From Escherichia coli O157 typing phage 7: 64,000 bases of DNA. Made by a program: the position numbers and the translations under genes. Under the pieces are notes generated by a model. The model was not told where the DNA came from. It saw nothing but the letters and a program-made list of their open reading frames with translations, and did not search any database. Below are positions 5,574 to 54,583 of the stretch, piece after piece; positions within the stretch are counted from its first letter, which is position 1, and each line of letters begins with the position of its first letter. The stretch is taken from sequence record KP869105, one strand, 5' to 3'.

Positions 5574-5587
5574 GGGCCGCAAGGCCC
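5574..5587 (+). other. GC stem-loop with GNRA-type loop after wac
   Basis: GGGCC-GCAA-GGCCC; no clear T-run, so not called a terminator. Confidence 0.4.
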
Positions 5588-13100: not shown

Positions 13101-13132
13101 AATGAATGGGGAGAAATCCCCATCCTGCTTAA

Positions 13133-19848: not shown

Positions 19849-19854
19849 AACAAA

Positions 19855-19877
19855 GGGACCTTTCGGTCCCTTTTTAT
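19855..19877. terminator. bidirectional hairpin terminator between gene 24 and rnlB
   Basis: GGGACC-TTTC-GGTCCC with T-rich runs on both strands. Confidence 0.65.
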
Positions 19878-21426: not shown

Positions 21427-21456
21427 TTCAAAATGAAGAAAGGGGCCGAAGCCCCT
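21427..21456 (-). terminator. intrinsic terminator after hoc
   Basis: AGGGGC-CGAA-GCCCCT hairpin with a T-rich run on the minus strand. Confidence 0.5.
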
Positions 21457-21461
21457 TTCGA

Positions 21462-33765: not shown

Positions 33766-33769
33766 CAAT

Positions 33770-33795
33770 GGGGACCGAAAGGTCCCCATATTTTT
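33770..33795. terminator. bidirectional hairpin terminator between gene 54 and the minus-strand early block
   Basis: GGGGACC-GAAA-GGTCCCC followed by ATATTTTTATTT. Confidence 0.65.
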
Positions 33796-43118: not shown

Positions 43119-43150
43119 GGAAAATAAAAAAGGACTCCCGAAGGAGTCCT
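43119..43150 (-). terminator. intrinsic terminator after the basic small protein gene
   Basis: AGGACTCC-CGAA-GGAGTCCT hairpin with T-run on the minus strand. Confidence 0.6.
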
Positions 43151-43154
43151 CAAC

Positions 43155-49472: not shown

Positions 49473-51060
<1,588 letters not shown>

Positions 51061-51090
51061 AATAAAATGGGCCTTGCGGCCCACTCCTTA
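51061..51090 (-). promoter_or_regulatory. hairpin-bridged ribosome binding site of denA
   Basis: Minus strand reads AAGGAG-T-GGGCC-GCAA-GGCCC-ATTTTATT-ATG; folding the hairpin would place the SD about 9 nt from the ATG. Confidence 0.45.
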
Positions 51091-52266
51091 AAAGTATTTT
51101 TTAAAACTCATCATAACTTTATCATCAACATCATTATCAATCTGTGCAACAAGATAAGATGACAGTTCTACTTCTTGCGGCGCGGATTGAACATTATCAG
51201 AATTAAGGTATTCACGAATCCAAGGATATGGATGTTTAACCGGAGCATCGGTAATCGGGCATGGAAGACCACACTGTTTCATACGAGATACAGTTAAGTA
51301 ATCAATAAAGCTCCACATGCTATTTGTATTTAATCCAGGAACATCGCCATCTTTAAATAAATGAACTGCCCAATCTTTTTCTTGGCGGTTAACTTCCATG
51401 AAAATATCAACTGCTTCTTGTTCACACTCTTTGGCAATTTTAACCCATTCATCACCATCAGTGCCAAGTTGAAGTTGACGAATAATATATTGTGTACCTT
51501 TAAGATGAAGCTGCTCATCACGTGCAATGAACTTCATAATCTTGGCATTACCTTCCATGATTTCCATGTTTTTATGGAAGTTAAAGGTACACGCAAATGA
51601 TACATAAAAACGAATAGCTTCTAATGCATTAATAACGTGCAGACAGAGATAAAGCGACTTCATCAGGTCTCGTTTACATTCTTCCAAATGAGTGAGACTG
51701 TTTGAATATGCTTCTAAATCATATTCATTTTCAGCAAAATAACTAAAGTTTTCTTTGGCGTTTTCCCAAATACGTGTCTTGTCCAGAACATCATCATAAT
51801 AACGACCAATAGATTCAGCACGTTTCATGATAGCTTTATCTAATACAATCTCATCAAATACCTTTGACGGATCAGCATAAAGATTTCGCATAATATGAGT
51901 GTATGAACGACTGTGAATAGTTTCACTAAAAGTCCATGTAGCAACCCATGTATCAAGGCTTGGGTCTGAAATCAATGACATAAGTACAGCAGACGGTGCA
52001 CGACCCTGAATGCTATCTAGAAGTGATTGATACTTCAGATTATTAGTAAAAATATTCTGCTGATATTGAGGAAGCTTATTAAACTGTGCAGCATCCATCA
52101 TTAAGTTTACTTCTTCAGGACGCCAGAAAAATGACAACTGCTTTTCGGTTAAATCTTCAAAAACTTTATGACGTTGAATATCATAACGCGCAATACCAAG
52201 ACCTGAACCAAAAAACATAGGTTCTTTTAAAACATCAACTGGATTTGTATTAAAAACTGTGCTCAT
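51088..52266 (-). CDS. nrdB: ribonucleotide reductase small subunit, uninterrupted
   Basis: 392 aa continuous ORF with di-iron RNR beta features; no intron-like interruption. Confidence 0.9.
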   Translation of the reverse strand: MSTVFNTNPVDVLKEPMFFGSGLGIARYDIQRHKVFEDLTEKQLSFFWRPEEVNLMMDAAQFNKLPQYQQNIFTNNLKYQSLLDSIQGRAPSAVLMSLISDPSLDTWVATWTFSETIHSRSYTHIMRNLYADPSKVFDEIVLDKAIMKRAESIGRYYDDVLDKTRIWENAKENFSYFAENEYDLEAYSNSLTHLEECKRDLMKSLYLCLHVINALEAIRFYVSFACTFNFHKNMEIMEGNAKIMKFIARDEQLHLKGTQYIIRQLQLGTDGDEWVKIAKECEQEAVDIFMEVNRQEKDWAVHLFKDGDVPGLNTNSMWSFIDYLTVSRMKQCGLPCPITDAPVKHPYPWIREYLNSDNVQSAPQEVELSSYLVAQIDNDVDDKVMMSFKKYF

Positions 52267-52318
52267 AAATTTTCCGCTTAGTTAATAGTTTGGTGACTCG
52301 TCCGTGAGTCAAATTATA

Positions 52319-54583
52319 TCATAATTTACAGGATGAACAATCTTCAGCTTTTGGAGTTTCTATTTCATAATCATCAGTACCAGAACCATCACGGGTATTA
52401 TGATAATAGAAATTTTTTCCGCCAAAATACCAAAAATACAAAAGGTCATCAATCATTATTGACATTGGAACCTTTCCTTTTGGAAAAATCTGCGGGTCAT
52501 AATATGTATTCGCTGAAGCTGATTGACATACCCATTTCAGCATAATAGCTACCTGCGTAAGATAAGGTTTATTACCTTTCTTAGCTAATTTCCATGTATA
52601 ATCATATAGGTCTATGTTATGTTCAATATTGGGCACGACTTGATTAAAGGAACCCTCTTTTGATTCTTTAACAGAGACTGGTCCACGTGGAGGCTCGATA
52701 CCGTTTGTACTGTTAGAAACTTGGGAAGATGACTCACATGGCATAAGTGCTGATAATGTGCTATTACGGATGCCAAAGAGCTTAAGGTCTTCCCGCAGCG
52801 ACGACCAGTCACAAACGTATTTTGGAGATGCGATTTGGTCAATCTTTTTATTGTACCAGTCGATAGGTAATTCGCCTCGAGACCAACGAGTGTCTGAATA
52901 ATATTCACAAGGTCCTTTTTCTTTGGCGAGTTTAATGGATGCTTTAATGAGTCCATACTGTAATCTCTCAAATAGTTCATGTGTTAAATCGTTAGCATCT
53001 TCATAAGAAGCAAAGTTACTTGCCAACCAAGCTGCATAGTTAGTAACACCTACACCGAGGTTACGACGCTTTTTAGCTTTTTCTGCTTCAGGAACTGGAT
53101 ATCCTTGGTAATCCAAAAGATTATCAAGAGCACGAACCTGGACTTCTGCCAATTCATTAATTTTATCTTGGTCTTGCCAGTCAAAATTATCCAGTACGAA
53201 TGCAGAGAGAGTACACAATCCAATTTCAGCATCAGGACTATTCACATCATTTGTTGGAATAGCAATTTCACAGCACAAGTTACTCTGACGAATAGGTGCC
53301 TTTTCACGAATAAACGGAGTATAGTTATTCGTATTATCAATGAACTGTACATAAATCCTTGCTGTTCCTGAGCGTTCAGTCATGAGCAATTCAAATAGTT
53401 CACGAGCTTTAATACGCTTTTTACGAATATTAGGGTCTTTTTCTGCGGCTTCATACAATTCACGGAAACGGTCTTGGTCTTTAAAATAAGAATAATAAAG
53501 CTCTCCGCCCATTTCATGGGGACTGAACAAAGTAATGTAATCGTTCTTTCCAAAACGTTCCATCATCAAATCATTCAGTTGAACACCATAATCCATATGA
53601 CGAATGCGGTTTTCTTCTACGCCTTTGTTATTTTTCAAAACAAGAAGATTTTCAACTTCCAAATGCCAAATAGGATAATAAGCAGTAGCAGCGCCGCCAC
53701 GAATTCCACCCTGTGAGCATGATTTAACAGCAGTCTGAAAATGTTTCCAAAAAGGAATAACACCAGTATGGCGTACTTCACCCATGCCAATCTTAGAACC
53801 TTCAGCACGAATCATACCAACGTTAATACCAATTCCAGCGCGTTTAGAGATATATTCAACAATTGAAGCGGAAGCCTTATTGATAGACTTTAATGAATCA
53901 CCTGCCTCAATAACAACGCATGAACTAAACTGCCGGGTTGGAGTACGGCAACCAGCCATAATAGGAGTTGGCAATGAAATCTGTCGAGTAGATACTGCTT
54001 CATAAAAACGGATAACGTGTTTTAATCTATCAACAGGTTCATCTTGATGCAATGCCATTCCAATAGTCATAAATGCAAACTGTGGAGTTTCATAAATTTG
54101 ACCAGTGGTTTTATCTTTAACTAGATATTTTTCTTTTAATTGCATCGCCCCGGAATAAGTAAATTCCATATCCCGCTCGTGCTTAATTTTTGATTCTAAA
54201 AATGTAATTTCTTCTGCAGAATATTTTGACAACAATTCAGGGTCGTATTTACCTTCATTTACACAGTAAGAAATATGGTCAATAAATGAACGTGGTTCAT
54301 ACTGCCCATAAACATGCTTACGAAGAGCAAACATTAAACAGCGTGCAGCTACATATTGATAATCAGGTTCTTCAACCGAAATAGAATTCGCAGCGGCCTT
54401 AATGACAATAGTCTGAATATCATCAGTTGTCATTCCATCACGGAGATAAGATTTAATATTTTCATATAATTCATAAGGATCTACTGATGTTCCTTCAGCT
54501 GCCCAAGATAAAACTTTAATAATTTTTTGTGGGTCAAAGCTCTGAGAAACACCACTACTTTTGATAACATTAATTAATTGCAT
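52319..54583 (-). CDS. nrdA: ribonucleotide reductase large subunit
   Basis: 754 aa as in T4 NrdA; C-terminal CSSCKL-type redox cysteines. Confidence 0.95.
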   Translation of the reverse strand: MQLINVIKSSGVSQSFDPQKIIKVLSWAAEGTSVDPYELYENIKSYLRDGMTTDDIQTIVIKAAANSISVEEPDYQYVAARCLMFALRKHVYGQYEPRSFIDHISYCVNEGKYDPELLSKYSAEEITFLESKIKHERDMEFTYSGAMQLKEKYLVKDKTTGQIYETPQFAFMTIGMALHQDEPVDRLKHVIRFYEAVSTRQISLPTPIMAGCRTPTRQFSSCVVIEAGDSLKSINKASASIVEYISKRAGIGINVGMIRAEGSKIGMGEVRHTGVIPFWKHFQTAVKSCSQGGIRGGAATAYYPIWHLEVENLLVLKNNKGVEENRIRHMDYGVQLNDLMMERFGKNDYITLFSPHEMGGELYYSYFKDQDRFRELYEAAEKDPNIRKKRIKARELFELLMTERSGTARIYVQFIDNTNNYTPFIREKAPIRQSNLCCEIAIPTNDVNSPDAEIGLCTLSAFVLDNFDWQDQDKINELAEVQVRALDNLLDYQGYPVPEAEKAKKRRNLGVGVTNYAAWLASNFASYEDANDLTHELFERLQYGLIKASIKLAKEKGPCEYYSDTRWSRGELPIDWYNKKIDQIASPKYVCDWSSLREDLKLFGIRNSTLSALMPCESSSQVSNSTNGIEPPRGPVSVKESKEGSFNQVVPNIEHNIDLYDYTWKLAKKGNKPYLTQVAIMLKWVCQSASANTYYDPQIFPKGKVPMSIMIDDLLYFWYFGGKNFYYHNTRDGSGTDDYEIETPKAEDCSSCKL

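Follow-up and report, generated by a model that had tools for sequence, protein, structure and literature searches.

The DNA analysed here is a 64,000-nucleotide stretch of Escherichia coli O157 typing phage 7 (KP869105), which we call the window. It is Tequatrovirus DNA, and the junction that concerns us lies between two of its minus-strand genes. The gene for the small subunit of ribonucleotide reductase, nrdB, occupies 51088..52266 (-), as given by the open reading frame list and by the annotation of matching records. It is followed by denA at 50650..51060 (-), an open reading frame of 136 aa that encodes the GIY-YIG enzyme endonuclease II (EndoII) and matches PDB 2WSH at 1.5e-87. Around the junction, an 801-bp stretch matches phage wV7 at 100% identity, and its identity to RB51, RB68 and many others exceeds 99%. 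T4 has the same sequence as the window at the hairpin site described below, and this site is held at 95% identity or higher in 502 Tequatrovirus records, 269 of which reach at least 99%.

Upstream, in the region 51088-54583 (-), nrdB is uninterrupted (392 aa) and begins after a 52-nt gap behind nrdA; the group I intron with I-TevIII, nrdB.1 and mobE, all found in T4, are absent from the window phage. Downstream, between the denA stop codon and the rnlA start, the MotA-box-like sequence TGCTTCCACATGGAGTGTGGTACTAT at 50624-50649 (-) may be a middle promoter of rnlA; across the window, this pattern is about as frequent as chance predicts.

The mRNA of the junction, read from the minus strand, is AAA UAC UUU UAA GGAG UGGGCC GCAA GGCCCA UUUUAUU AUG AAA GAA. 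Positions 51061-51090 span exactly the nrdB stop codon, the Shine-Dalgarno (SD) sequence, a 6-bp hairpin with a GNRA tetraloop and a U-rich spacer. The stop codon UAA (51088..51090, -) overlaps the denA SD AAGGAG (51084..51089, -), and together they form UAAGGAG, which is complementary over 7 nt to the 3′ end of 16S rRNA. The hairpin at 51068..51083 (-), identified by folding, covariation and RNAalifold, consists of the 5′ arm UGGGCC (51083-51078), the loop GCAA (51077-51074) and the 3′ arm GGCCCA (51073-51068). It is followed by the spacer UUUUAUU (51061..51067, -), which may also be a terminator U-tract, and by the conserved start codon AUG of denA (51060-51058, -). From the last G of GGAG to the A of AUG the linear distance is 23 nt. 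With the 16-nt hairpin looped out it falls to 7 nt, or to 9 nt if the closing U-A pair is not counted. A preliminary description of this DNA had placed a hairpin between the SD and the denA ATG, with spacings of about 25 nt linear and about 9 nt folded; the exact minus-strand sequence confirms the hairpin, and our counts agree with both figures.

The same description named AAGGAG as the only good SD for denA. This claim held, because the anti-SD duplex energy in the window is -8.0 to -8.7 kcal/mol for the upstream flank vs +2.6 kcal/mol for the spacer, and the sole further AAGG near the denA start lies within the hairpin loop and 3′ arm. Folding prediction, which had been suggested as a check, returned a stable fold: the 71-nt region reached -18.0 kcal/mol (z = -3.1), and none of 200 shuffles folded equally well. 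The core hairpin by itself accounts for -11.6 to -12.2 kcal/mol. In a comparison with Rfam, the single match was L20_leader, the ribosomal protein L20 leader, which covered 51053-51179 (-) and reached 24.4 bits vs a gathering score of 58.7 (E = 0.11). As this is below threshold, we treated it as chance.

Junctions for comparison were taken from 14 annotated phages that span the DenA identity range and from 36 IMG/VR viral contigs. These gave 43 loci and 25 distinct nrdB-denA junctions, in which at least 10 genera of Tevenvirinae are represented (Tequatro-, Mosig-, Dhaka-, Gelderland-, Winkler-, Gapriver-, Jiaoda-, Karam- and Roskildevirus, together with unclassified relatives). All 25 junctions, which are related by descent so that their conservation is in part inherited, show one order: a TAA stop, an SD-like motif, a GC-rich hairpin, a U-rich spacer of 6-10 nt and ATG. 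nrdB ends with TAA in every case, and the SD-like motif (AAGG, AGGA, GGAG or AGAG) always begins 0-5 nt after this stop and stands 0-4 nt 5′ of the stem. The hairpin loop is UUCG in most junctions and GCAA in the T4 type, with UUUG, UUAG and CUUGA in single lineages. The stems differ by compensatory changes, for instance GGGCC/GGCCC, GGGAC/GUCCC, GGGGC/GCCCC and GGGAGAC/GUCUCCC.

To assess covariation, 23 distinct sequences were aligned on their loops, without gaps. In this alignment 90% of the stem cells were paired and both sides had changed in five of the seven pairs; the observed covariation was reached by none of 500 shuffles, and slid registers scored far lower. RNAalifold, run independently on the longer junction, found the same 6-bp stem and no other, with compensatory changes at four of six pairs. 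Its consensus leaves the SD, the spacer and the AUG unpaired. These results suggest that the denA hairpin is almost certainly an RNA structure under selection.

The distances are conserved as well. Across the 25 junctions the linear spacing between SD and AUG, counted from AAGG, is 22-29 nt (median 25), and folding reduces it to 6-14 nt (median 9). Stems range from 4 to 7 bp, and the loop nonetheless stays 12-16 nt from the ATG, mostly 13. The median anti-SD energy is -5.3 kcal/mol in the 12 nt upstream of the stem and +2.4 kcal/mol in the spacer. Among the 24 distinct junctions that were scored, no SD was found at normal spacing, and no spacer was below -0.1 kcal/mol. The upstream motif itself is weak in two lineages, AAAGAG in L013 (-2.4 kcal/mol) and AAGAG in L044 (-1.7 kcal/mol). 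In two others, L045 (TAAATTAGGAG) and L011 (TAATAAGG), a GG-containing SD motif outside the stem lies away from the stop codon and has stayed next to the stem. As the motif adjoins the stem in these cases too, it is not simply the context of the stop codon.

Some relatives are organized differently. In Krischvirus (RB49-like phages; L014, L050, L052 and L056) several small overlapping ORFs lie between nrdB and denA. Just 5′ of denA (L014 430-500; L050 and L052 625-700; L056) there is a GGCGGGA-GAAA-TCCCGCC hairpin followed by TTTGTTG and then by a conventional SD, GAGGAAAGGA. A hairpin upstream of denA thus either predates the split arrangement or has a wider distribution. L049 lacks a hairpin and shows a TAATG stop-start overlap.

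We also considered whether the GGAG could be a target of RegB. The RegB target is an 11-nt, single-stranded, A-rich sequence, GGAGRAYARAA, and structured GGAG motifs are resistant (PMC1702504). The denA site, GGAGUGGGCCG, has a GC-rich stem directly after GGAG and does not fit this motif. Nor is the GGAG conserved, as other genera have GGAC, GGAA or GGUA. We therefore rejected this candidate.

Which start codon denA uses decides whether the hairpin is untranslated at all. The T4 records AF158101.6 and NC_000866.4 (at 137951) start denA at a GTG and give it 144 aa; in the window this GTG lies at 51082..51084 (-), is in frame with denA and would extend the gene to 50650-51084 (-). If translation began there, the hairpin would merely be coding sequence. 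In Dhakavirus an ATG stands at the position equivalent to the GTG, and one record, that of Dhakavirus WG01 (L005 477-914), starts denA at this in-frame ATG at -24. However, the first G of the GTG is also the last G of GGAG, which leaves an SD spacing of zero, and the codon is buried in the -12 kcal/mol stem. An in-frame start at -24 is confined to 6 of the 25 distinct junctions, from four lineages (the T4 type, Dhakavirus, Serratia phage 92A1 and L039). The other 19 have no in-frame upstream start, and four of them carry an in-frame stop at -24 or -27. Moreover, the eight extra codons consist of the hairpin and the U tract, and their variation is RNA-like, not protein-like.

Data on the protein agree with the shorter form. 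Most other records of Tequatrovirus and its relatives that we fetched start denA at the ATG and give 136 aa. The construct crystallized in PDB 2WSH is a tag followed by MKEIA, that is, from the ATG, and this 136-aa construct crystallizes as a folded EndoII tetramer. Biochemical work on EndoII has used constructs of 136-aa size, and residues M1, F10 and Y13 of DenA are conserved across genera. The native N-terminus of EndoII was not found in the literature that we searched. On grounds of spacing, structure and non-conservation we reject the GTG start, which we regard as very improbable, and conclude from the comparison that the ATG at 51060 is very likely the start of denA. The GTG annotation in the T4 reference is probably wrong, and the -24 start of Dhakavirus WG01 likewise looks mis-annotated. 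The preliminary description had spoken of a T4-length protein of 136 aa. Our evidence favours the ATG and the 136 aa, but the GenBank and RefSeq entries for T4 itself annotate a GTG and 144 aa. It had also named initiation at the upstream GTG as the case that would overturn its proposal, and this codon is not conserved.

With the start codon placed at 51060, the SD is beyond the functional distance of about 15 nt, no alternative SD is available, the stem brings the spacing into the functional range, and the stem is conserved through compensatory changes. These are the features of a split ribosome binding site. As the hairpin is conserved across many phage genera, it most likely folds out and joins the SD and the AUG. 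We lean towards the view that the upstream SD of denA works through hairpin bridging, and that denA is probably a third T4 case of such a site. We infer that the upstream SD is in actual use and that the hairpin favours expression instead of impeding it. The proposal that denA has a split site of the kind known from genes 38 and 25 is thus supported by comparative and structural evidence. The literature that we searched yielded no denA reporter, structure-probing, N-terminal, ribosome-profiling or 3′-end data, and no earlier account of the denA initiation region; key older papers lie outside it, so a prior mention is possible.

A hairpin at this position could also be inhibitory. A potentially harmful GIY-YIG nuclease might be kept at a low level, as at T4 e, soc, 49, I-TevI and other nuclease genes, by an extended helix (GGAG:UUUU together with CUUUUA:UGAAAG) that hides the SD along with part of the AUG. 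In the T4 type, the minimum-free-energy structure does pair the SD as well as the last two bases (UG) of the start codon (-18.0 vs -12.2 kcal/mol for the core). The weak extensions contribute -5.8 kcal/mol and reach over the SD and into the AUG; in this naked-RNA prediction the SD is mostly paired, its GAG bases having P(unpaired) values of 0.00-0.04. About 10 other junctions also have predicted extensions, and inhibitory initiation-region structures are listed for several T4 nuclease genes (PMC3014915). Taken by itself, the predicted extension would allow the element to reduce translation rather than increase it. Yet the extension is made of G-U and A-U pairs that lie outside the consensus structure, and the conserved, covarying part (51068-51083) includes neither the SD nor the AUG. 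An inhibitory hairpin would be expected to hold the SD or the start codon inside a conserved helix, and here only weak, non-conserved extensions touch them. Such a role also leaves unexplained why an SD at normal distance is never found. Finally, the element of gene 25, which is experimentally enhancing, has an equally large predicted extension. Because this validated element shows a similar extension, at -5.2 kcal/mol, predicted occlusion of the SD does not discriminate between the two roles, and folding prediction cannot decide the sign of the hairpin effect. Overall, we consider an inhibitory hairpin improbable.

A more substantial alternative is that the hairpin mainly serves transcription, as an intrinsic terminator or attenuator, or as a 3′-end protector that closes the nrdA-nrdB transcription unit. 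AAGGAG would then be only stop-codon context and the A-tract of a terminator, and the hairpin would give no help to denA, which would be expressed at a low level from read-through RNA. Initiation might, for example, be SD-independent, relying on S1 and the U-rich leader, or occur through reinitiation by ribosomes terminating at the nrdB stop. The preliminary description had noted that the hairpin sits right after the nrdB stop and might act in processing or attenuation. The hairpin does adjoin this stop, and such a role is plausible from terminator annotations and from the sequence of the T4 type. The 6-bp GC-rich stem is followed by UUUUAUU, the purine-rich 5′ and U-rich 3′ flanks also fit the appearance of an intrinsic terminator, and AAGG at the 5′ edge of a stem is common among T4 hairpins. 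The T4-type tail has 6 U in 8 and a tail score of 3.94. Its discriminant after d'Aubenton-Carafa (1990) is +24.7, vs +26.9 for the best terminator-like hairpin of the window (43151-43130); the formula was combined with ViennaRNA energies, and these values are no more than indicative. In the records of phages Ac3, DalCa and others, the hairpin is annotated as a rho-independent terminator. In Krischvirus a hairpin and U tract precede denA together with an ordinary SD, which means that such a hairpin can exist without a bridging role. In addition, experiments have confirmed a weak terminator nearby, within T4 mobE, so such attenuators do operate in the nrd region (PMC2790892).

These observations have to be set against the comparative data. 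The discriminant is above zero in only 10 of the 25 lineages, whereas every one of them retains the SD-hairpin-AUG geometry. Several U tracts are poor (Mosigvirus -43, L044 -38), and in L045 and L011 a separate GG-containing motif is retained outside the stem though displaced from the stop. The hairpin is not listed by the built-in terminator scan, presumably because the G-T-tolerant stem extension of the scan uses up the T tract. Furthermore, the gap between stem and AUG is 7 nt and leaves no room for a promoter; an efficient terminator would silence denA. A pattern scan of nrdB on the same strand (51090 to 52266) found no MotA-box, and sigma-70-like matches inside nrdB were at chance level (23 vs 23.4 expected). 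On these simple scans we rejected a denA promoter inside nrdB, although one is still possible. Since denA transcripts must pass through the hairpin, given the 7-nt gap and the lack of a MotA-box in nrdB, any termination must be partial; and since the discriminant is passed in only 10 of the 25 lineages, termination appears to be a secondary role that is not conserved. We found no T4 3′-end maps in the literature that we searched. As the main function of the hairpin, termination seems rather unlikely to us. It is, however, compatible with a split ribosome binding site: termination or attenuation is likely an additional role in T4-type phages, and the bridging geometry is, in our reading, the feature that is universally conserved within Tevenvirinae.

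We rejected a terminator on the opposite strand, as annotated in phage Ac3, because CTCCTTAAAAG, the sequence after the hairpin on the + strand, is not a T tract. Elsewhere in the window, GC-rich tetraloop hairpins of 8-9 bp with GAAA or UUCG loops, flanked by A/T tracts, resemble terminators, and some are apparently bidirectional (33768-33789, 21438-21459, 19852-19873, 43130-43151 and 13104-13125, both strands).

Based on this evidence, we propose a model for the initiation of denA by hairpin bridging. As denA has no room for an adjacent promoter, it would be read from transcripts that pass through nrdB. On such transcripts the 16-nt, GC-rich tetraloop hairpin would fold and loop out most of the 23 nt between SD and AUG. 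The 30S subunit could then pair with the SD (UAAGGAG), which would now lie effectively about 7-9 nt from the AUG, and position this AUG in its P site; initiation there would produce the 136-aa EndoII. In T4-type phages the hairpin and UUUUAUU are probably also a leaky intrinsic terminator or a stabilizer of the 3′ ends of nrd transcripts. If the terminator is active, denA would be carried on read-through RNA alone.

In a stronger form of this model, one hairpin would have two interdependent jobs: it would stop most nrd transcripts and, on read-through RNA, be needed to assemble the denA initiation site. We think this form possible but doubtful. If it were true, EndoII output would be the product of read-through and folding, and the junction would be a transcription-translation attenuator inside a ribosome binding site, present in at least 10 Tevenvirinae genera. 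To our knowledge, a terminator within the ribosome binding site has not been described for the gene 25 and gene 38 cases.

If the split site is real, denA would be a third and phylogenetically broader case in which folding makes a distant SD usable, and one in which an extra-stable tetraloop doubles as a terminator-like element. On the sequences compared, its phylogenetic spread is broader than that reported for gene 25 in the literature that we searched. The junction also argues that the denA start in the T4 reference (GTG, 144 aa) is wrong. Gene callers that need an SD 5-10 nt upstream will mis-start or under-score denA in hundreds of T4-like genomes. In addition, the arrangement gives a simple and testable account of what sets the dose of a nuclease that degrades host DNA. 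The natural covarying stems, with GCAA and UUCG loops and 4-7 bp, amount to a ready allelic series in which to examine how the ribosome copes with structure between SD and AUG. We expect T4 specialists to find the proposal plausible and unsurprising; its practical value would be a corrected start for a reference gene and a clean regulatory element that can be tested.

How does denA compare with the known systems? In a review from 2010, the split sites named are those of genes 38 and 25 and no others (PMC3014915). Folding is reported to reduce the SD-AUG distance from 22 to 5 nt in gene 38 and from 27 to 11 nt in gene 25, and both cases have reporter and DMS-probing support, as summarized there (PMC3014915). 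The gene 26-25 site, split or accommodated, was described by Nivinskas et al. (1999) and by Malys and Nivinskas (2009), as summarized in PMC3014915. The denA spacing, 23 nt reduced to 7-9 nt, falls between the published values for genes 38 and 25.

The gene 26-25 site is intact in the window at 26886-26847 (-), and as an experimentally validated element it served as our positive control. It reads UAAUAA-GAGGA-CUCAAAG-AAUU-CUUUGAG-CUAUUGUA-AUG, a layout equal to that of denA within the same window. In both, the stop codon is fused to the SD, the stem-loop begins 0-1 nt after the SD, and a pyrimidine-rich spacer of 7-8 nt leads to the AUG. The linear spacing is 27 nt in gene 25 and 23 nt in denA, the folded spacing is 9-11 and about 7-9 nt, and the weak predicted extensions are similar (-5.2 vs -5.8 kcal/mol). 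Both stems are kept in T-even relatives and missing from more distant T4-like phages. There are differences as well. The denA stem is GC-rich, has a GNRA or UUCG tetraloop, reaches -12.2 kcal/mol and is followed by a terminator-like U tract, whereas the gene 25 hairpin is AU-rich and reaches -7.5 kcal/mol. denA is a prereplicative nuclease gene, whereas gene 25 is a late baseplate gene. Finally, the gene 25 site has been validated by experiment, whereas the denA site is put forward here from comparison. Gene 38, which lies outside the window, resembles denA in principle and in linear distance (22 nt), but its context is different: the 37-38 junction on a late mRNA.

A scan of all 64 kb for an SD, a hairpin with at least three GC pairs, a gap of 3-12 nt and then an ORF start (50 codons or more) returned denA, gene 25, a match at +3570 inside gene 12 and a weak GTG match at +32186. 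The match at +3570 is a false positive, being inside gene 12.

The denA hairpin can also be compared with other T4 intercistronic hairpins, which likewise have a short GC stem and an extra-stable C(UUCG)G or GNRA tetraloop. About a dozen such hairpins occur in the window, and Tuerk and co-workers reportedly associated them with T4 intercistronic regions in 1988. In three others that precede genes (5574+, 25137+ and 42269-), the order is hairpin, SD and ATG. Thus, the SD lies 3′ of the hairpin in these junctions but 5′ of it in denA. A second copy of GGGCC-GCAA-GGCCC is found at 5574-5587 (+), just 3′ of wac (fibritin), and is followed by the SD AAGGA and an ATG.

Lastly, the T4 nuclease and lysis genes e, soc, 49, I-TevI and segB resemble denA in having RNA structure at the initiation region, and the predicted denA extension touches both the SD and the AUG. 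In those genes, however, the SD, the AUG or both lie within the conserved helix, whereas in denA the conserved helix lies between the SD and the AUG and excludes both.
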